The position numbers and the translations under genes are program-made. From positions 23,956-87,955 of the forward strand of contig JAPKHT010000005.1 of the NCBI GenBank assembly GCA_026646655.1: a stretch of 64,000 bases of DNA, given 5' to 3'. Each line of letters starts with the position of its first letter. The stretch's first letter is position 1. The notes under the pieces were generated by a model that was given only the letters and a program-made list of their open reading frames with translations, ran no database searches and was not told where the DNA came from. Below are positions 4,572 through 54,660 of the stretch, piece by piece. The stretch comes from Verrucomicrobiia bacterium. GTDB taxonomy: Bacteria; Verrucomicrobiota; Verrucomicrobiia; JADLBR01.

Positions 4572-7500
4572 ATGAAGACGGATGGACTCGGATGGAGGTG
4601 GGTGCGCCAGAGAAAGTGTAGCCGAGCGCGTGAGCGCTTGGCCGACGGGGTTGGTGTTGGGCCGGGCCAAACGCTGACGCGTTCGGCTGCGCTGGCCACC
4701 TGGGCGCTCGTGGCGTGGTGCGTGTTTTCGGTTGCCGATGCCGCGCCCGCAAAGGTGCTCTTGTTCTCTGGGCAGAACAACCACGCCTGGGAGAAGACGA
4801 CGCCGGTGCTGAGGGGAATCCTCGAAGATGCGGGGGCCTGTTCGGTGGAGGTGACGGAGGCGCCGCAGGATCTCGATCCGGCGGGGCTGAAGGGCTTCGA
4901 TGTCATCGTCAGCAACTGGAACGCGTGGGGGGCCAAGGGCAAGGGGGCGGCGGTGGCGGATTGGCCGGAGGCGCTGAAGAAGGCGTACGTGGAATTCGTG
5001 GCGTCCGGCGGGGGGCACGTGGCGGTGCACGCGGGCACGTCGTCCTTCGAGGGCTGGGAGGATTACCAGCGGATCTGCGGGGCGACGTGGGGCCTGGGGC
5101 AGACGAGCCATGGCCCGCCGCACGAGTTCGAGGTGCGGGTGGACGACCCATCGCACCCGATCACGCGGGGTTTGGCGGCATTTCGTACGACGGACGAACT
5201 GTGGAATCGCCCCAAGGTGCAGCCGGGATTCCGGGCGATCGCCTCGTCGTTCTCGGAGACGGACCACAAGGGGACGGGGGAATGGGAGCCGACGGCGATC
5301 GTGGGGACCTTTGGGCGGGGCAGGTGCTACGCGCTTCTGCTCGGTCACGATGCGACCGCAATGGGCAACCCGGGATTCAAGGAACTGCTCCGGCGTGGCG
5401 TGGCTTGGGCCGCGGCAGGCAAGGCGGAAGCCGCGGCGGGGAAGGCCGTCCCGGCCTTACGGGACTGGACTCCTGACCAAGGGCTGGCGCCATTCAACGA
5501 GGCGGCCCGGGCGGTGCAGGCCGCCGGCAACGATCCGGCGGGTCGCGCCGAGGTGGCCAAGAAATTGGCGGGGCTATTGGGCGAGCCGGTGCCCGCGGCG
5601 GTGAAGAAGTTCGCCTGCGAGCAGCTGGCGGTCGTGGGAGGGGAGGCGGAGGCGGGGGCGCTCTGCGCGCTGCTGGGTGACGAGGCGCTGGAGACGCCGG
5701 CGAGGGGCGCGCTGGAACGGATTGGTGGACAGAGGGTGGCGGCGCTGCTGCGCGAAGCGTATTCGAGGGCGGAAACACCTGCGCGACGAGCCGGGATCCT
5801 CGGAAGCCTGGCGAAGCTCGGGGACGCGCGGGCGGTGCCTTTGGCGGCCGGGGCGCTGGCGTCGGAGGACGGGGTGCTGCGTGCGGCGGCGATGGTGGCG
5901 CTGGGGCAGATCGGCGGGGAGGCGGCCGCGGGCGCGCTGCTCGGGATCGAGGGGAGCCTGGGCGACGCGGACAAAATGCCGTGGGGCGGCGCTCTGCTGG
6001 CATGCGCCGAGGGGATGGGACCCGCGCAAGGCGGGAGGATTCTGGATCGTCTGGTGAAAGTGGGTCGACCCGCGAGCATCCGTGCCGCGGCGCTCGCGGC
6101 GAAGATCCGGCTGGCGGACCAGGGGGGGTTGGCTCTGGCTGTCCGCGCGCTGCGGGGCGCGGATGAGGCGTTGCGGCGGGGGGCACTCGATGCATTGAGG
6201 GCGGACCGGGGCGCGAGATTGCGGGCATGGCAAGGGGCCATCGCACGAGCGGTGGGCGAGTTTGCCGAGCCGGTGCGCCTGGCGGTGCTGGATGCATATG
6301 TCGCCAATCGCATCCGGGGGGGAGCCCTGCTGGCCGAGGGCTTGGCGAGATCCAAGGATCCCGCCGCTCGCGGTGCGGGTCTGCGCGCGCTTGGCGAGCT
6401 GGGGTCGGAGCCCTATTTCGACATCCTGTTTGATCATCTGGTGGGCGAATCACCGGAAGACCGTGCCGCGGCGACCGACGGATTGGCGGTATTGCGGGCG
6501 GCGTCCACCGACGGGCGACTCATCGCGTTGCTCGAAACGGTTAATCCGACCGCAGCACCCGCGGTGGTCGAAGTGCTGCGGCGCCGGGGCACGACGTCTG
6601 CCGTGCCCGCGCTGTTGACCTTGGCGCGCGGCGGGGATGCCGAGACCGCCAAGGCCGCGGCGCGAGCGGCCGGTGAACTCGGGGGCCCGGCGGCGATCCC
6701 GGGGCTCGCGGATGTCATCTCGAAAGGCGGGCCCGGTGCACAGAGCGCGGCTCAAGTGCTGGCGAAGATCGCCCGGGCGGAACCGGAGGTGGCGAAGGCG
6801 CGGCTGGCGATTGCCATTCCCATGGCGCCGGAATCCGCGCGGGAGACCTTCGGCAAGATACTGGCGCTCGTGGATGGTTCGGCAAAGGGCGGCAGCGCGG
6901 CGGTGCCGGGACTCGGGCGGAATCTGGCGGTGGGCGCCCAGGCCGAAAGCCCGACGGGACTCAAGGCGGACGGTGCCGCCGGCGGGCCGGGCGCCGCCGT
7001 GGATGGCGACCCGGCGACCTATTGGGACGAGCAGAACGGCCAACCGGAGTACCGATTGCGGGTCACGCTGAAAGAGGAGGCGACCGTCTCGAGGTTGCGG
7101 ATCACGGGCTACCGGCACCACGAATTCTCGGCCAGGGATCTCGCGGTGCTGTGCAACGGGCGAGAGGTCAAGAGGGTCGCGGACGCCACGTACGATAACA
7201 ATCAACTGCTATTACAATTTCCAGAAACCCCCTGCAAAGTCGTCGAGCTGCGCATCACGGCCTATTACGGGGGCAGCCCGGCGATCAGGGAACTGGAGAT
7301 CTTTGGCGATGCGGCGCGGAAAGAGGGGGCGAAGGTGCCGGGGGTGCCCTCGGCGGGCGGAGGCCTTTCCTGGGAGAAGGGCGATGATTCCGTGGCGCTG
7401 CTGTCGGCAGGCAAACCGGTGTGGCGGCTCACGCATGGGGCGAAGGAGCCATTCCCCTATTTTGATCCGCTGGGCCTCGTCGGCGGCGGGAATCTGGTGT

Positions 7501-14909: not shown

Positions 14910-15062
14910 GCTCGAAAATAGCCGCAGCGCCTCCCGCAACCGAACGCGTAAGCGTTTGGCCGCCAATGCCTGACTCGAAAATTCGTAGCCACGGTCGCCA
15001 GACCGTGGACCCGGGGTTGAGTCGAACGATCTCCGGCAACCGCCGGACCAGATGGGCTACAC
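14910..15062 (+). repeat. Dispersed repeat family A, copy 3: two tandem units (forward), the second divergent
   Basis: First unit: ctcgaaaatagccgcagcgcctcccgcaaccgaacgcgtaagcgtttggccgccaatgcctga. Second unit: ctcgaaaattcgtagccacggtcgccagaccgtggac...gggctacactttggctc. Confidence 0.75.
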
Positions 15063-15190
15063 TTTGGCTCGTGCGGAATAATGGTGGCTGTCGATGGGAC
15101 GATGGCCAAACGGACGCTCGCCGGTTTCATCGGGAACTCACGAACTCAGGAAGGGCTGGGAACGGAATGGCGCTCAGTCAGGTGATGTCT

Positions 15191-20523: not shown

Positions 20524-20672
20524 GGACCGGTCAAGCGGGTGCGGCCAGGGCCGCAGGACTCGATTAGGGGGGTCGCGCCGCCTCGGTGGCGCGGCCCCTT
20601 CGAGTTCGGGGGACGCGGGTGGATACGGTGAGGATGGTCCGGGGTGGCGTGTTGGGTCGAGAGTGTGGAGAT

Positions 20673-22235
20673 ATGGCGACGCGAATAAGACGGTTTGGTG
20701 GCGCGGTGTGCGCGTGGCTCCTGTGCCTGCCCGGGGCCGCCTGGGATGCGCAGGCGGCGGCGGGGAAGGCGGAGTTTCCCGAGGCGTACCGGATCGCCGT
20801 GGAGTTCAGCGAGTTTCTGCGGACGGATTCTGAGCGGGAGGCGAAGTACAAGGAGCGCATCGCGATCCGGTTGGCCGAGGATGGTTTCTTCAGTCAGGCG
20901 GTCGACCTGCTGGGGGGCGTGTCGATGAGCGAATGGAGGCGGCCGCAGGGCATGGCCGGGGTCGCGGCCATCGCCGCGCAGGCGGGAGAGATGGATCTGG
21001 CGCGGGAGCTGACCGGGCGTGCGTCGGCCGAGATCGAACTGCATGGCGACTGGCGGCGTGCCCGCGTGGCGGCGGAGGTGGTGGCGGCCCTCGGGGAGCA
21101 AGGGCGATTCGAGGAGGCGCGACCGCTGTGGGCGACCCTGGAGGGACACGATGGCGAACGGGACTACGCGGCCGGTCGGCTTTGCGCGGCGGCGGCGCGC
21201 CTGAATCGCAGCGACGCATGGGGGGAGCTTTCGGGGGGTGACGGGGCAGGGAAGAGTTCGGGACTCGTGACCTCGGAGGCGAACGCCCTGGTCAATGCGG
21301 CGGCATGGTGCCAGACCCGGGGCGATGCCGGGCGGGCGAAGGAATTTGCGGCACGCGCGCGGGGACTGGCGGAAGGCTTGCTCGCATGGGATGGCTCCGG
21401 GTTGATGGCGGAGGTGGCGACCCAGCTGCGCATGTCCGGGCTCCAGGACGATGCGCGGGCGATGCTCGACGAGGCCGAAACGGTGGCCCTGGCGCTGCCC
21501 GATGGGGTGGCGTGGAAGGCGCAAAATCTCGTGCGGGTCGCGGACGCGCTGCTCGGATTCGGAGATCGCGACCGGGCCGGCGCCCTGTTGGAGGTTGCGG
21601 CCAGACAGCCGGCCCTCCTCCAGCCTCTGGAACGCGGCGAGAGCGCGGCGGCCGTGGCGTACGGGTATCAGCGGCTCCATGGGGGGGACGAGGCCGCCCG
21701 GCGCTGGCTCGCGGCGGCCGAGGTGGCGCTGAAGGATGTGACACACCACCGGGTGCGGAGCATGAGCGTGATCGATACCTGCCTGGCCATGGGCAAGGCG
21801 GGTGTCGCGCCATCGGAATCCGTGAGGGCCTGCCTCGGGCAGGTGCGGGCGATCGTGGAGCGGGACGTGGCCGCGTGGGAGAAGGAGTTTGGGCCCCCGA
21901 AGAAGATCCTGCCGCCCGGGGTCCCGACAACGCGTGGCCACGGTCGCCGTGCCGTGGACGCACCCGCGGGACCATCTGGCCAGAAACTTCGAAGTTCCAT
22001 GCACCACGACGCGTTTCACAACAAACACCTAAACCGTTGGTTATGCGGATGCCGCCTTAAGGCGGCACTACGAGCCCAAGACCACGGGGGTGTTCGTAGT
22101 GCTGCCTTCAGGCAGCCCGGATCCACCAGGTGTCTCCGCATGCAGGAGGCGGGGCGTGCGCGCGCGGGCGGAGGAGTCGGTCCAGAATCACAATCGGCGC
22201 GGTGCTGCCACACGAATGTAACAGAGTGGGCCTAG
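20673..22235 (+). CDS. Hypothetical exported alpha-helical (HEAT/TPR-like) repeat protein; 3' end unreliable
   Basis: Signal peptide MATRIRRFGGAVCAWLLCLPGAAWDAQA and Ala/Leu-rich helical repeats. The frame stays open through the repeat-B element at 22021-22140, and the last ~80 codons look non-coding (Cys/His/Arg junk). Confidence 0.5.
   Translation: MATRIRRFGGAVCAWLLCLPGAAWDAQAAAGKAEFPEAYRIAVEFSEFLRTDSEREAKYKERIAIRLAEDGFFSQAVDLLGGVSMSEWRRPQGMAGVAAIAAQAGEMDLARELTGRASAEIELHGDWRRARVAAEVVAALGEQGRFEEARPLWATLEGHDGERDYAAGRLCAAAARLNRSDAWGELSGGDGAGKSSGLVTSEANALVNAAAWCQTRGDAGRAKEFAARARGLAEGLLAWDGSGLMAEVATQLRMSGLQDDARAMLDEAETVALALPDGVAWKAQNLVRVADALLGFGDRDRAGALLEVAARQPALLQPLERGESAAAVAYGYQRLHGGDEAARRWLAAAEVALKDVTHHRVRSMSVIDTCLAMGKAGVAPSESVRACLGQVRAIVERDVAAWEKEFGPPKKILPPGVPTTRGHGRRAVDAPAGPSGQKLRSSMHHDAFHNKHLNRWLCGCRLKAALRAQDHGGVRSAAFRQPGSTRCLRMQEAGRARAGGGVGPESQSARCCHTNVTEWA
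22021..22140 (+). repeat. Structured repeat family B, copy 1 (double hairpin: ccgccTTAAggcgg, cactacgag...ttcgtagtg, ctgccTTCAggcag)
   Basis: About 85% identical to 45625-45745 over the core gccgccttaaggcggcactacgagcccaagaccacgggggtgttcgtagtgctgccttcaggcag. Confidence 0.75.
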
Positions 22236-29521: not shown

Positions 29522-30871
29522 ATGGTTCCCCTGGGCTTTGCCCTGGCCTCCGGGGTTTCGGCCCAAGAGCCACAGCCCTCGTGGCCGGTCAACTATTTCC
29601 GCTCGGAGGAATTCAAGCGGGATTTCTTGGGCAGCTATGGCATGCGGACCGACATCGAGCCCTACCTCTCCACCGAGGAGGAGAAGACGCGGATGCAGGA
29701 ACTCACGGACCTGATCGCGACCAACCCGCGGCAGGCGGTGCGCGACCTGATGGAGTACATCACCGACGAGACCAACGCGCAGTTCGATTTCACCCTGGGC
29801 AACCTGTATTTTCAGGGCGGTGACATCGACCGGGCGGCCTCGCGATACTTCCAGGCGACGAAGAAATTTCCGAATTTCCTCCGGGCGCACAAGAACCTGG
29901 GGATGATCCATTTTCGGAAGGGCCGGAACGCGGAGGCGATCAAGTCGCTGACGCGGGCGGTGGAGCTCGGGGGCGCGGACGGGACGGTGCTGGGGATCCT
30001 CGGCCTGGCGTACCTGAACACGGAGCGCTGGCTCTCGGCGGAGTCCGCGTACCGGAGCGCGCTGCTGCTCCAGCCCGACGTGGCGGATTGGAAGCTGGGG
30101 CTGGCGCGGGCGCTGTTCTCACAGCAGAAATTTGGCGAGGTCAGCGCGCTGATCGACGAGATGATACAGCAGTCGCCGGACCGCGCGGACTACTGGCTGC
30201 TCCAGGCCAACGCGTTCATCGGAATGAACCAGCCGATGAAGGCGGCGCAGAACTACGAGATGCTGATCCGGATGAACAAGGCGACGCCCGAGGCGCTGAA
30301 CCTGCTGGGCGACATCTACGTCAACGAGAAGCTCTACGGGCTGGCCGCGAGGGCCTACGTGATGGCGATGGATGTGGAGCCCGACAAGGGGCTGCCGTCC
30401 GGTGTCCGCGCGGCGGAGATCCTGGCGCAGCGGGGGGCCACCGCCGCGGCGAAGGATGTCGTGAAAGGGCTCCGCGACGCGGGCCTGGACAAGCTGGCGG
30501 CGGAGGACAAGCGGCGGGTGCTGAAGACCGAGGCGAGGGTGGCGGCGGCCGAGGGGGCGGGGGACGAGGCGGCGAAGGTGCTGCACGAGATCGTGGATCT
30601 CGACCCGCTCGACGGCGAGGCATTGCTGCTGCTGGGGCAGCACTACGGGCGCAAGGGCGAGCCGGAGAAGGCAATCTTCATGTACGAGCGGGCGGCGGGC
30701 ATCGAGGCCTTCGAGGCGGACGCCAAGGTGCGCCACGCGCAGTTGCTGGTGGAGCAGGGCAAGCTCGAGCCGGCCGTGCCGTTGCTCAAGCGCGCTCAGG
30801 AGATCAAGCCGCGCGACAGCGTCGGCCAGTTCCTCGACCAGGTGGAGCGGATTGTCAGGAGGCGACGGTAG
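29522..30871 (+). CDS. Tetratricopeptide-repeat protein (TtpD-like accessory of TonB2-type systems); alternative start 29348
   Basis: Signal peptide MVPLGFALASGVSAQEP followed by multiple TPR units. The upstream ATG at 29348 has a GGAGGAG SD, but it would put a repeat-C element and a 58-aa n-region inside the CDS. Confidence 0.75.
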   Translation: MVPLGFALASGVSAQEPQPSWPVNYFRSEEFKRDFLGSYGMRTDIEPYLSTEEEKTRMQELTDLIATNPRQAVRDLMEYITDETNAQFDFTLGNLYFQGGDIDRAASRYFQATKKFPNFLRAHKNLGMIHFRKGRNAEAIKSLTRAVELGGADGTVLGILGLAYLNTERWLSAESAYRSALLLQPDVADWKLGLARALFSQQKFGEVSALIDEMIQQSPDRADYWLLQANAFIGMNQPMKAAQNYEMLIRMNKATPEALNLLGDIYVNEKLYGLAARAYVMAMDVEPDKGLPSGVRAAEILAQRGATAAAKDVVKGLRDAGLDKLAAEDKRRVLKTEARVAAAEGAGDEAAKVLHEIVDLDPLDGEALLLLGQHYGRKGEPEKAIFMYERAAGIEAFEADAKVRHAQLLVEQGKLEPAVPLLKRAQEIKPRDSVGQFLDQVERIVRRRR

Positions 30872-43619: not shown

Positions 43620-45068
43620 TCATATCGGCGGTCTTTCCCTGTGCCATGGCGTGGTCCGCTCGTAATGGTGGGCCGCGCGGAGGATGGTCGATTCGCCGAA
43701 CGGTCGACCGATGATCTGGAGCCCGATGGGCAGGCGTCCCCCGCCCTCATCGGCGAAGCCGCAGGGGACGGAGATGCCGCAGGTGCCGGCCATGTTGACG
43801 GCGATGGTGAAGACATCGCCGAGGTACATGCTGATGGGATCGTCCAGTTTCTCGCCCAGCCTGAAGGCGGGGGAGGGGGCCGTGGGGGTCAGGATGGCAT
43901 CGCAGGAGGCAAAGGCGCGATCGAAGTCGCGGCGTATGAGGGTGCGGACCTTCTGGGCGCGCAGGTAATAGGCGTCGTAGTATCCCGAGCTCAGGACATA
44001 GGTGCCGAGGAGGATGCGGCGCTTGACCTCGCTGCCGAAGCCCTCCCTGCGGGTCCGCGCGTAGCAGTCGATCACATCGGCGGGATCCTTGGCGCGGTGG
44101 CCGTAGCGGACGCCATCGAAGCGGGCCAGGTTCGAGGATGCCTCTGCGGGTGCGATGATGTAATAGGACGCGATCGCGTACTCGGTGTGGGGCAGGGAGA
44201 TGTCAATGATCTCGGCCCCCTCGCGGGCGAGGTGATCGATGGCGCCCCGGACCGCCCGCTCGACCGCGGGATCCATGCCCGGGATGAAGTACTCCTTGGG
44301 CACGCCGAATTTCAGCCCTTTCACCCCGCCTTCCAGCGATGCGGCGAAATCGGGGACGGGCCGGTCCACGGAGGTGCAATCGGACGGGTCGTGTCCCGAG
44401 ATGGCGCCCAGGATCAGGGCGGCGTCCTCGACGTAGTGGGCCAACGGGCCGATCTGGTCCAGCGACGACGCGAACGCCACCAGCCCAAAGCGCGAGACGC
44501 GCCCATACGTGGGTTTGAGGCCCACGCAACCGCAGAAGGACGCCGGCTGGCGGATCGAGCCGCCCGTGTCGCTGCCCAGGGCCACCACGGCCAGGCCGCC
44601 TGCCACGGCGGCGGCGCTTCCCCCGCTGCTGCCCCCCGGCGCGCGCGACGTGTCCCAGGGATTCCTGCAGGGGCCGTAGTACGAATTCTCGTTGGACGAA
44701 CCCATGGCGAACTCGTCCATGTTCACCCGGCCCGCGGGGATCGCGCCCGCCCCGCGCAACTTGCGGATGACGGTCGCATCATAGATCGACCGATGACCCT
44801 GGAGGATGCCGGAGCCGCAGGTGCACGGCTGGCCCCGCACCGCTATCACGTCCTTGATGGCGACCGGTATGCCCCCCAGCGGCAGCGCGATGTCCGCGCG
44901 GTCCGCCTCGGCACATGCCGCATCCCAGTCGGTGTGGACATAGGCGTTCAGGGCCGGGTTATGGGCCTCCACCCGCTCCCGGATCGCCGCGACGATGTCC
45001 CGCGGGCGGATCTCGCCCGCGCGCAACTGCGCCCGCAAGGCCGCGACCGACTCAAGGGGCAAGCTCAT
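43620..45068 (-). CDS. gatA: Glutamyl-tRNA(Gln) amidotransferase subunit A (amidase signature family)
   Basis: Amidase signature GGSSGGSAAAVA...GSDTGGSIRQPA. Confidence 0.9.
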   Translation of the reverse strand: MSLPLESVAALRAQLRAGEIRPRDIVAAIRERVEAHNPALNAYVHTDWDAACAEADRADIALPLGGIPVAIKDVIAVRGQPCTCGSGILQGHRSIYDATVIRKLRGAGAIPAGRVNMDEFAMGSSNENSYYGPCRNPWDTSRAPGGSSGGSAAAVAGGLAVVALGSDTGGSIRQPASFCGCVGLKPTYGRVSRFGLVAFASSLDQIGPLAHYVEDAALILGAISGHDPSDCTSVDRPVPDFAASLEGGVKGLKFGVPKEYFIPGMDPAVERAVRGAIDHLAREGAEIIDISLPHTEYAIASYYIIAPAEASSNLARFDGVRYGHRAKDPADVIDCYARTRREGFGSEVKRRILLGTYVLSSGYYDAYYLRAQKVRTLIRRDFDRAFASCDAILTPTAPSPAFRLGEKLDDPISMYLGDVFTIAVNMAGTCGISVPCGFADEGGGRLPIGLQIIGRPFGESTILRAAHHYERTTPWHRERPPI

Positions 45069-45352
45069 TCGACGATCTTTGGCGTGATGAACAAGCCGTT
45101 GGCCGCCAGCGGGGCATTGGCGAGCGCGTCGGATTCCGGAACCGACTCCCGCGGTTCGTCGGCGCGAAATACATTGTGGATCGGCGCGGCATGTGCCGTC
45201 GGCTCAATCCCTTCCAGATCCAGCCGCCCCAATGCCGCTATATGCCCCAGTACCCCATCCAGTTGCCCCTGAAACGCCTCCGCCTCGCCATCGTTCAGCT
45301 CCAGCCGCGCCAAATGGGCCACGTACGCCACGTCGATCTCGACCTTTCCCAT
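45065..45352 (-). CDS. gatC: Glutamyl-tRNA(Gln) amidotransferase subunit C
   Basis: 95 aa starting MGKVEIDVAYVAHLARLEL. The stop overlaps the gatA start (ATGA). A longer TTG-initiated form starts at 45391. Confidence 0.75.
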   Translation of the reverse strand: MGKVEIDVAYVAHLARLELNDGEAEAFQGQLDGVLGHIAALGRLDLEGIEPTAHAAPIHNVFRADEPRESVPESDALANAPLAANGLFITPKIVE

Positions 45353-45465
45353 CGCAGTTCGACCGATAGCGCGGGCCGCCGGATCTGGCAACTCCCGATG
45401 CCGGTCAGAAACCGGAATCTGCGCCCCCCAGGGTCGCTCCGATCCCCTTCGATATCCGGGGGTGA

Positions 45466-45552
45466 CTCAAAAATTACCGCGTCGCTTCCCGTAGCCGAAC
45501 GCGTGAGCGTTTGGGCGCCAATCGCCCGAGGCGATCGGCCACATTTTCCCAA
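45466..45552 (+). repeat. Dispersed repeat family A, copy 6 (forward)
   Basis: ctcaaaaattaccgcgtcgcttcccgtagccgaacgcgtgagcgtttgggcgccaatcgcccgaggcgatcggccacattttccc. Confidence 0.85.
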
Positions 45553-45624
45553 GCCGGTGGTCCGGCGGTTGCCGGATGGGATCTAACCAGAAACTTCAAA
45601 GTTGGGGACACTTCGATGCGTGTC

Positions 45625-45745
45625 ACAACATACACGGAATCAGCAGCTTATTCGGACACCGCCTGAAGGCGGCACTACGAGCACACGACCACGGGAATGT
45701 TCGTAGTGGTGCCTTCAGGCACTCCGCGACCCACCAGAGGTTTCC
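45625..45745 (+). repeat. Structured repeat family B, copy 2
   Basis: caccgcctgaaggcggcactacgagcacacgaccacgggaatgttcgtagtggtgccttcaggcac, with the same double-hairpin architecture as 22021-22140. Confidence 0.75.
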
Positions 45746-45807
45746 CCCTGAATAATCCGGCGCGTGGAGAACTCTGGCCATCTCCGCCCGCGTCAACGCA
45801 TGGGGGC

Positions 45808-45836
45808 AAAAAAAAGCGGCCGCCGAAGCGGCCGCC
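45808..45836 (-). terminator. Rho-independent terminator (minus strand): GCGGCCGC-ttcg-GCGGCCGC stem followed by U8
   Basis: The plus strand reads aaaaaaaa gcggccgccgaagcggccgcc. On the minus strand this is the hairpin followed by TTTTTTTT, about 360 nt downstream of the ECF S-component stop. Confidence 0.7.
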
Positions 45837-46192
45837 CTCTGCAGGGCGGCCAGCGTGTGCTTGGGATCAGGTGCTCCTACTCCGGGTTTTGGGATAGGGG
45901 GGGAAAGAACGAGAGTAGGAGGTGCCAACCGCGCCTGCAAATCTTCAAAATTTGCAACTCTGCCCCATATGGAACGATTTCCATTTGGAGGCCGAGTGTT
46001 CAAAGAACTGTTGAATCAATACATCGATTCGGTGCCTCGCGCAACCGAAAAGGGGACATTTGTAAACTTTATGAAAAAAATTAATGTCATGACGAGGTGT
46101 GGTTTCGATGGCATGCGGATTGCTGTCTTGGGATTTGGGGGGCCGACATCGGGGCAACGCAAGACGATATTATTCAAATAGTTATAGAAATG

Positions 46193-48465: not shown

Positions 48466-48540
48466 GGATCAAGAATGTCGCTGATCGCCGGGACGAAAAA
48501 GTGTGGCCCATCTGATCCGGCAGCTGCCGGACCACCGGGG

Positions 48541-48630
48541 GTGAAAGTGTAGCCGATCGCCTCGGGCGATTGGCGGCCAAACGCTCACGCGTTCGGCTAC
48601 GGGACGCGATGCGGCCATTTTCGAGTCAGC
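48541..48630 (-). repeat. Dispersed repeat family A, copy 7 (reverse)
   Basis: gtgaaagtgtagccgatcgcctcgggcgattggcggccaaacgctcacgcgttcggctacgggacgcgatgcggccattttcgagtcagc. Confidence 0.85.
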
Positions 48631-54272: not shown

Positions 54273-54515
54273 GGCAGTGCGCCCGATCCCGCGGTCCTCA
54301 TTCTTCATTGTGGCGATGAAGTTTTATGCGCCCACCGCACCCGCGGCGGGCGAATGAGAGGGAGCGGCGCAGATATTCGGACTTCGGGCCTCGAACCTCG
54401 CTCCCGCCTTCACCGCCGGACTTGGACCGGAGACTGGCATCTTGGGAGTCTGTAACCCGTTACCGTAGCGCAACTGTTCCCGATTCTCACGGGATTCCCT
54501 GGAGCCGCACCCATC
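54250..54515 (-). promoter_or_regulatory. Cobalamin (AdoCbl) riboswitch with SD-sequestering expression platform
   Basis: The minus-strand RNA reads GGGUGCGGCUCCAGGGAAUCCCGUGAGAAUCGGGAACAGUUGCGCUACGGUAAC...GCACUGCCCGGCCUCCAGG...CUGGAGGAUUCACAUG. It matches the Rfam RF00174 core (GGUGC..AGGGAA..GGUGnAAnUCC..ACnGUAA) and a B12-box-like GCACUGCC. The anti-SD CCUCCAGG pairs with the SD CUGGAGG of the downstream gene. Confidence 0.55.
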
Positions 54516-54660
54516 TTGTCACCCGGTTCCCCGCATCGCGTGCCGGGGCCGGGCCGGATCTAGCAAAGAACCGGATCCAGCCTGATCGCGCGGGGGCGGG
54601 GAGTCAAGGGGAGATTCGGGACCGCGTGCCGAGGCGAGGGGGCGTCGGCCCCAGGAATTG

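Follow-up and report, generated by a model that had tools for sequence, protein, structure and literature searches.

A non-autonomous dispersed DNA repeat, probably of the REP/REPIN kind, in an uncultured Verrucomicrobiae lineage

RESULTS

Two copies of a repeat unit of ~200 nt in the window and a third elsewhere

The window, i.e., the whole 64-kb stretch of DNA that was analyzed (G+C content, 66.7%), contains two look-alike hairpin stretches. Copy A lies upstream of the gene for a TonB-dependent receptor and ends 61 nt before its ATG (22246). Copy B is positioned 232 to 450 nt upstream of gatC (45065 to 45352, − strand), with the element on the opposite strand. Reading the sequence confirmed the nested architecture described for both stretches in the original prediction as well as their common orientation, A and B both being on the + strand. 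In copy A the hairpins are ccgccTTAAggcgg, the inverted repeat cactacgag...ttcgtagtg, and ctgccTTCAggcag; in copy B, the same central inverted repeat is enclosed by ccgccTGAAggcgg and gtgccTTCAggcac. A 41-nt degenerate core pattern has exactly two matches in the 64 kb, namely, copies A and B (0 expected from 100 shuffles).

While the repeat itself stood up to analysis, the extent of ~110 nt first assigned to it did not, the real unit comprising ~200 nt. The repeat finder returned an ungapped similarity of 146 nt with 79% identity (21974 to 22119 and 45581 to 45726), and gapped alignment extended the homology to ~21977 to 22184 and ~45584 to 45780, with 79 to 84% identity over ~200 nt. With nhmmer, copy A was delimited at 21967 to 22190 (E = 1e-66) and copy B at 45573 to 45787 (E = 5e-69). 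According to the alignments, the full unit of copy A, consisting of a left arm, a REP dimer core, and a right arm, covers 208 nt (21977 to 22184, + strand), including a 12-nt GC-rich insertion in the right arm relative to the other copies. In copy B, the part common to all copies covers 197 nt (45584 to 45780, + strand), from TAACCAG to CTCTGGCCA, and is followed by a 22-nt tail (TCTCCGCCCGCGTCAACGCATG; 45781 to 45802, + strand), which is also missing from the empty sites of two relatives described below (L013 and L015) and shows weak similarity to the contigs L014 and L001; it is uncertain whether this tail is part of the element or a separate indel.

Among 185,579 species, each represented by one genome, an exact-pattern scan gave a single match, which proved to be a third full-length copy on the Verrucomicrobiales metagenome-assembled genome (MAG) contig CAZYWZ010000025.1 (L001; 5669 to 5474, − strand). 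It is 84 to 85% identical to each window copy and begins 2 nt past the stop codon of a co-oriented open reading frame (ORF). At the protein level, no similarity was found between L001 and the sequence flanking either window copy. In the alignment, all three copies are homologous along the whole unit. The existence of only two copies had been named as a sign of a chance duplication; L001 provides a third.

The core consists of two inverted GTAG hairpin units

The best-conserved section of the unit is a 70-nt core, whereas the arms diverge, being conserved to ~75 to 80%. On the + strand the core reads CCGCC-TTNA-GGCGG CACTAC, a 24-nt spacer, and GTAGTG CTGCC-TTCA-GGCAG, i.e., it is composed of two inverted units, each formed by GTAGTG, a GC stem of 5 bp, and a 4-nt loop and oriented so that its GTAG points inward. 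In copy A, REP unit 1 is located at 22052 to 22071 (GTAGTG-CCGCC-TTAA-GGCGG read on the − strand) and REP unit 2 at 22096 to 22115 (+ strand, GTAGTG-CTGCC-TTCA-GGCAG); the corresponding units of copy B are found at 45659 to 45678 (GTAGTG-CCGCC-TTCA-GGCGG read on the − strand) and 45703 to 45722 (+ strand, GTAGTG-GTGCC-TTCA-GGCAC). The outer stem pair of REP unit 2, which is C-G in copy A and G-C in copy B, represents the sole compensatory change. Between the inward GTAGs of copy A lies the 24-nt spacer (22072 to 22095, + strand), whose ends pair (GAGC/GTTC) and at whose center the sequence GACCACGGG is invariant in 3/3 copies. GTAG REPs are recognized by an unpaired GTAG at one end, a stem of 5 to 13 bp, and a loop of 2 to 20 nt (PMC3733652), and the motif GTAGTG-CYGCC-TTNA-GGCRG, with two inverted occurrences in each of the three copies, has this structure. 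In REP terminology, the core is a tail-tail REP dimer, or REPIN-like. Its minimum free energy fold is one imperfect hairpin of ~27 bp (−35 to −43 kcal/mol as RNA and −15 to −26 kcal/mol as DNA), and the alternative fold with three adjacent hairpins is 3 to 10 kcal/mol less stable.

The left arm (~75 nt) starts with T(G/A)(G/A)CCAGAAACTTC(G/A)AAGTT, and the right arm (70 to 90 nt) contains CCAG(A/G)(G/A/T)GT(T/C)TC, resulting in a whole unit of ~200 nt with the termini TRRCCA...(T/G)G(G/A/T)(C/T)CA. The arms are asymmetric and not mutually complementary, and the self-complementarity detected by nhmmer is confined to model positions 87 to 159. The motif scan placed the left-end motif CCAGAAACTTCGAAGTT, which includes the palindrome AACTTCGAAGTT, at 21980 to 21996 (+ strand) in copy A; it has two forward matches in the window plus its own reverse-strand self-match, with 0.06 expected by chance. 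The GTAGTG-hairpin units of the element were found only within the conserved ~200-nt unit, never alone, and blast searches with each arm separately detected no solo arms in the window or any retrieved locus. Both the homology and the inserted segment reach ~75 nt to the left and 70 to 90 nt to the right of the REP doublet, i.e., the doublet does not form the ends of the unit as it does in a REPIN. The mobile segment thus comprises long asymmetric arms in addition to the doublet, so that the unit is no plain REPIN.

The element has no coding capacity, and the open frame shared by its copies gathers replacements and an indel. A small protein gene was therefore rejected: the frame is open in 2/3 copies (A and L001), a stop closing it ~7 codons short of the end in copy B, nearly all substitutions are replacements, a 1-nt indel shifts the frame, and there is no conserved start codon. 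Six-frame translations of the three copies, joined into a single query, had no match among 5.8 billion proteins, but as this search also missed the known read-through ORF, its negative outcome carries no weight.

The orthologous sites of relatives are empty

At site A, an ORF called as a 509-amino-acid product without a Pfam match (20586 to 22235, + strand) reads through copy A, and the element, along with the spacer that precedes the next gene, contributes ~85 codons to its tail. The protein database holds one ortholog of this ORF (76% identical), which is encoded on contig L010. This contig is collinear with the window, with 82 to 84% nucleotide identity in both flanking genes, and the site is empty in L010, having 47 nt compared to 290 nt in the window (21914 to 22203), the latter holding copy A. 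The L010 ortholog has its own stop, placed where the element starts in the window. The insertion boundary at site A is fuzzy, and a target-site duplication is not evident. Copy A would have supplanted the stop of the upstream ORF, adding a junk C-terminal tail, and would set a strong hairpin between two co-directional genes.

For site B, the gatCAB loci of six relatives were retrieved (GatA 83 to 89% identical), all of which feature a near-invariant sRNA-like sequence of ~130 nt ending in a canonical terminator upstream of gatC. In L013 and L015 (GatA 87% and 89% identical), this terminator is followed by ~55 nt and the gatC ATG, with no element, whereas in the window the element (45584 to 45802) and a cluster of other REPs lie between terminator and gatC. 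Specifically, the filled junctions read GGGATC|TAACCAG...GCATG|GGGGCAAAA and the empty ones GGATC|AGGGCAAAA; as defined by these two empty sites, the junctions show no target-site duplication. L011, L014, and L016 carry other sequence in the intergenic region upstream of gatC, and the gatCAB loci of more distant relatives (GatA identity, 72% and 68%) contained neither the element nor the classic GTAG REP of the window (REP-A; see below). Copy B would have increased the distance between gatC and the terminator of the sRNA-like gene upstream by ~220 nt; it is antisense to all surrounding transcription units.

By these comparisons, both window copies are lineage-specific insertions, not conserved leaders, because the orthologous sites in relatives are empty. 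The original assignment of copy B to the gatCAB leader region turned out to be wrong, since gatC of the relatives directly follows the sRNA-like terminator without the element, and a gatCAB leader was rejected on this ground. More generally, it is very improbable that the element serves the host in cis, as an mRNA 3′-end stabilizer, an attenuator, or a leader of the TonB-dependent receptor gene or gatCAB. Copies A and L001 do sit right at the 3′ end of an ORF running in the same direction, and REP hairpins are known to stabilize upstream mRNA (PMC3733652); yet the regions upstream of the orthologous TonB-dependent receptor gene and gatC of relatives lack the element, copy B is opposite in orientation to gatC and the upstream genes, and no gene function is common to the three contexts.

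Distribution and signs of further copies

An nhmmer search of ~120 kb from relatives (L010 to L016, L019, and L020) detected zero copies. The window is 99.75% identical to the conspecific MAG GCA_020847615.1 (JADLBR010000465.1, Verrucomicrobiae bacterium), which has the element at the identical position, and hence no recent movement was observed. In four sequencing runs, Logan contigs have their first base within the core (window position 22059 or 22080), as expected for a multicopy k-mer, since de Bruijn assembly stops wherever a k-mer occurs in more than one context. The 30-mer at the contig break is common to the L001-type copy and absent from copy B, from which we infer that at least one further copy with that core is present in those samples, in the same genome or in another. 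The mobile REP-like unit offered as one option in the original prediction thus gains support from the inverted GTAG hairpins, the empty orthologous sites, the L001 copy, and the assembly breaks within the core.

A classic GTAG REP family (GTAGCCGAACGCGTAAGCGTTTGGC), presumably the "family A" of that prediction, has 12 copies in the window, 1 in L001, and 0 in ~90 kb of the relatives L010 to L016, a distribution that equals that of the element. In total, only three independent copies of the element were retrieved, whereas typical REP/REPIN families have tens to hundreds; this number counts against a REP/REPIN assignment. A metagenome pattern scan gave three matches, each a chance match whose similarity did not extend beyond the pattern, a viral contig scan gave 0 matches, and a distant blastn search of plasmids and phages gave none.

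The region upstream of gatC in L014 contains a different repeat of ~115 nt, which includes TGGCCGGAAACTTCAAA preceded by right-arm-like sequence and has a 9-bp direct repeat, GCATCCGGT, on either side. By our own calculation, the 14-nt match found in L014 alone would be expected ~0.006 times in the loci searched. The right-arm-like sequence is joined straight to the left-end motif via a single TGGCC, an arrangement that hints at modular relatives or at a circle-junction or att-like site.

The ends of the unit bear on the possibility of a classical MITE, i.e., a derivative of a DDE-type insertion sequence (IS) that has lost internal sequence and is mobilized in trans by the transposase of this IS via the short terminal inverted repeats TGGCCAGA...TCTGGCCA, with the REP-like core as incidental cargo, a reading we regard as unlikely. 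A size of ~200 nt, the lack of coding sequence, the presence/absence polymorphism between relatives, and the TGGCCA-like hexamers at both ends would all suit a MITE, and the L014 repeat sharing TGGCCGGAAACTTCAAA hints at a wider family with common ends. However, the end motif, TGGCCA(GA), which is itself palindromic, is degenerate and only 6 to 8 nt long at both ends (TAACCA, TAGCCA, GGTCCA, and TGATCA), conservation is lower at the ends than in the core, which is the reverse of what is predicted for transposase-bound terminal repeats, target-site duplication is absent at site B and not evident at site A, and the window contains no IS. Given the weak conservation of the ends and the lack of a target-site duplication, a DDE-type MITE is the less likely reading.

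Folding potential and the case for a structured RNA

The second option in the original prediction, a small structured RNA, would take the form of a multicopy sRNA gene, maybe on a mobile unit, giving a + strand RNA of ~150 to 190 nt. Its core of three hairpins or one long hairpin would be closed by the long-range helix UGCGUGUC/GGCGCGUG, and its function might be trans-acting or protein binding, via the modeled apical sequence GACCACGGG, whose invariance in all three copies fits such a role. The + strand folds better than shuffled sequences (z = −3.8 and −5.1) and somewhat outperforms the − strand (z = −2.0 and −2.9), and the RNAalifold consensus features a G·U-rich closing helix with one GC-to-UG change that pairs only on the + strand. 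By our own reading of the left arm, it also contains a candidate ECF-sigma-like arrangement, GAAACTT-N16-CGA(T/C); an ECF-sigma or sigma-54 promoter was rejected, as there is no more than a resemblance and copy A does not conserve the −10 element.

Against these points, Rfam yielded nothing at the gathering threshold or at E ≤ 10 (best sub-threshold matches, 14 to 17 bits, E > 0.6), the promoter scan found no sigma-70-type promoter, and no hairpin is followed by a T-run, though canonical intrinsic terminators of this lineage lie 25 nt away. T-runs were judged by reading the sequence, the terminator scanner having missed an obvious terminator at 45806 to 45840. The element is missing from the orthologous loci of relatives, so that synteny is lacking, and its orientation to genes is inconsistent, copies A and L001 being oriented with their neighbors and copy B antisense. 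In the compensatory-substitution check of the three-hairpin model, 18/20 stem pairs were invariant and 1 was compensatory, a result equaled by 161/500 shuffles; with three sequences compared, this covariation is not significant. Taken together, these results leave the small structured RNA unsupported, and we consider an sRNA gene quite unlikely.

Several other readings were rejected. A tRNA-like or tmRNA sequence was discarded since ARAGORN found nothing, although the core, which is followed by CCACCA, might by eye be arranged as a cloverleaf. The differences between copies are not adenine specific and Pfam scans revealed no reverse transcriptase in the window, which speaks against the template or variable repeat of a diversity-generating retroelement (DGR). 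A retron msr-msd or an IS110 bridge RNA would have an adjacent reverse transcriptase or recombinase, neither of which is present, and an integron attC site was dismissed because the R″/R′ consensus is missing and there is no cassette array.

DISCUSSION

In our view, the element is likely a dispersed DNA repeat of the REP/REPIN kind that is lineage specific and non-autonomous. As such it belongs to a commonplace type of selfish repeat in bacteria, inserted in intergenic DNA of one uncultured Verrucomicrobiae lineage. The unit would travel whole, i.e., as the REP dimer together with the left and right arms, and its effects on the host would be by-products and not the reason for its existence. 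By analogy with known REP systems, the element is probably moved by a RAYT-type transposase (REP-associated tyrosine, HUH/Y1 transposase), which would be encoded elsewhere in the genome, as Pfam scans of the ~45 ORFs in the 64-kb window detected neither a RAYT nor another transposase domain. RAYTs cleave GTAG on single-stranded REP DNA (PMC3733652; PMC3116915; PMC3337134), and the enzyme proposed here would recognize the GTAG and hairpin on single-stranded DNA, a mode of recognition shown for E. coli REPs.

GTAG REPs are present in the PVC superphylum, and the verrucomicrobium Opitutus terrae is highly enriched in them (PMC3733652). The tag, the 5-bp stem, and the 4-nt loop of the element are within the ranges of the GTAG tail-tail REP dimers of Di Nocera et al. 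2013 (PMC3733652). Tail-tail and head-head dimers have been described with spacers of 20 to 100 bp, and heterodimers can fold singly or as one stem-loop (PMC3733652); the element is likewise inverted with the GTAGs inside and a 24-nt spacer within this usual range, and likewise a heterodimer that can form separate hairpins or one large stem-loop. REPs at ORF ends encode extra residues (PMC3733652), and the element, too, is located downstream of ORFs, sometimes in ORF ends, and is patchy among relatives. In contrast to GTAG REPs, which occur in tens to thousands of copies per genome, very few copies of the element were observed, and its GTAG hairpins are confined to the ~200-nt unit. The GTAG-19 tail-tail dimers of O. 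terrae have spacers of 1 to 2 bp compared to the 24 nt seen here, the families being compared by description (PMC3733652).

REPINs (Bertels and Rainey 2011, PMC3116915; PMC3337134) likewise consist of two inverted REPs and a spacer forming a hairpin, and they are non-autonomous and presumed to be mobilized by a single-copy RAYT, in which we liken the element to them. Unlike REPINs, the element is conserved and inserted ~75 nt and 70 to 90 nt past the REP pair, with arms that are not complementary. REP dimers are regularly embedded in larger conserved tracts (PMC3733652). The GTAG-15 dimers of Anabaena variabilis lie in long palindromes and share with the element the composite, modular combination of a REP pair and constant flanks, and the CGTC-1 dimers of Halothiobacillus neapolitanus in 41-bp palindromes (PMC3733652) and the BIMEs of E. 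coli are composite as well. In all these cases the difference lies in the flanks, which in the element are long and asymmetric and do not form a split palindrome. The ERIC/IRU elements of enterobacteria are ~130 to 200 nt long with an imperfect palindromic core, have a low to moderate copy number, are intergenic, and show presence/absence polymorphism with no obvious target-site duplication or transposase. All of these features are common to them and the element; however, ERIC is palindromic over its full length, has no GTAG-tagged sub-hairpins, and lacks sequence similarity to the element.

The ends of the unit are marked by neither a target-site duplication nor a clear terminal inverted repeat, which counts against the favored assignment. 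A quite doubtful possibility is that the unit, rather than being a REP dimer with hitchhiking flanks, is a distinct composite mobile element using site-specific integration without duplication via a TGGCCA-like core. It might also harbor a structured RNA in which a four-way junction forms the core and GACCACGGG an invariant loop. If this composite reading were true, it would represent an undescribed class in Verrucomicrobia, mobilized by a RAYT or a recombinase and larger than a REPIN.

By these findings, the TonB-dependent receptor gene and gatCAB both lack a conserved structured leader here. With respect to annotation, the element accounts for the junk C-terminal tail of a hypothetical protein (the 509-amino-acid call, MCC6356341-like), and it also accounts for the fragmentation of short-read assemblies of this lineage at these points. 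It adds a new REP-type family and a composite REP-dimer unit for the sparsely studied Verrucomicrobiae, where GTAG REPs were known mainly from Opitutus terrae. If a cognate RAYT were found, the element would offer a small, tractable REP-RAYT system outside the Proteobacteria.

A candidate small RNA gene upstream of gatC

An unannotated segment on the minus strand upstream of gatC (window positions 45806 to 45935) is a candidate small RNA (sRNA) gene. Its sequence of approximately 130 nt is nearly identical across five relatives, with divergent flanking sequence. Within it, a stem formed by CTCCTACTC and GGAGTAGGAG encloses the C-rich loop UUCUUUCCCCCCCUAUCCCAAAACCC, and the segment ends in a canonical terminator, GGCGGCCGCTTCGGCGGCCGC followed by T8 (45806 to 45840, minus strand), which was read directly from the sequence. 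The promoter/terminator scanner reported no terminators over positions 45300 to 46000 despite this textbook hairpin and its T8 tract; because it missed this terminator, negative results of the scanner are unreliable on their own. In the Rfam search of the candidate, the sole signal was Hrs13, which was below threshold (25.9 bits; gathering score, 52). Upstream, in a promoter-proximal position near 45975 to 45990, lies the conserved palindrome GGAAACGTTCC. The sRNA-like gene is separated from the gene for an ECF S component by a low-GC stretch (40 to 50%; 45940 to 46190), inside which a possible small open reading frame (ORF) begins with ATGAAAAAA on the plus strand (about 46071 to 46182); this start motif is kept in relatives, and the peptide is not conserved.

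At 54349 to 54568 on the minus strand, a match to Rfam RF00174 (45.5 bits) identifies a cobalamin riboswitch, and downstream of it lies a transport cluster of genes of unknown function, along with ECF/ABC transporter components. Relatives have, in the equivalent region upstream of gatC, a gene for a BtuB-type receptor together with cobU/cobT/cobS, after which comes a TonB gene.

Repeats in intergenic and coding positions

In one relative (locus L014, 9531 to 9665), the intergenic region upstream of gatC holds a repeat-like insert of approximately 115 nt that differs from element B, the non-coding repeat with a GTAG REP-dimer core. The direct repeat GCATCCGGT stands on both flanks, and the ends read CCCACCAG...CTGGTTGG; shared with element B are TGGCCGGAAACTTCAAA and a right-arm-like stretch, in permuted order.

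The plus-strand ORF at 20586 to 22235 encodes a hypothetical protein (509 to 520 residues in public annotations, e.g., MCC6356341.1), whose final ~85 residues come from read-through of element B copy A; the ortholog on contig L010, which is empty at that site, ends earlier. The tail is either an artefact of the annotation or a C-terminus decorated with REP sequence.

REP family A consists of the classic GTAG REP GTAGCCGAACGCGTAAGCGTTTGGC, often preceded by CTCGAAAATTG, with 12 copies in the 64-kb window (starting at 4618, 4666, 9744, 11265, 14936, 30952, 42062, 42085, 45491, 48576, 59108, and 61796). A second short hairpin repeat, TCCGGCARCCGCCGGACC (75 to 108, 15032 to 15065, 30165 to 30198, 48516 to 48549, and 45556 to 45575), mostly adjoins these copies, the two forming intergenic mosaic repeat clusters. 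One family A copy occurs in the Verrucomicrobiales contig CAZYWZ010000025.1, and none in approximately 90 kb of relatives L010 to L016 (GatA identity, 83 to 89%). The 12 copies in the window and their absence from these relatives therefore point to a lineage-specific REP expansion, which implies a REP-associated tyrosine transposase (RAYT) somewhere in the genome.
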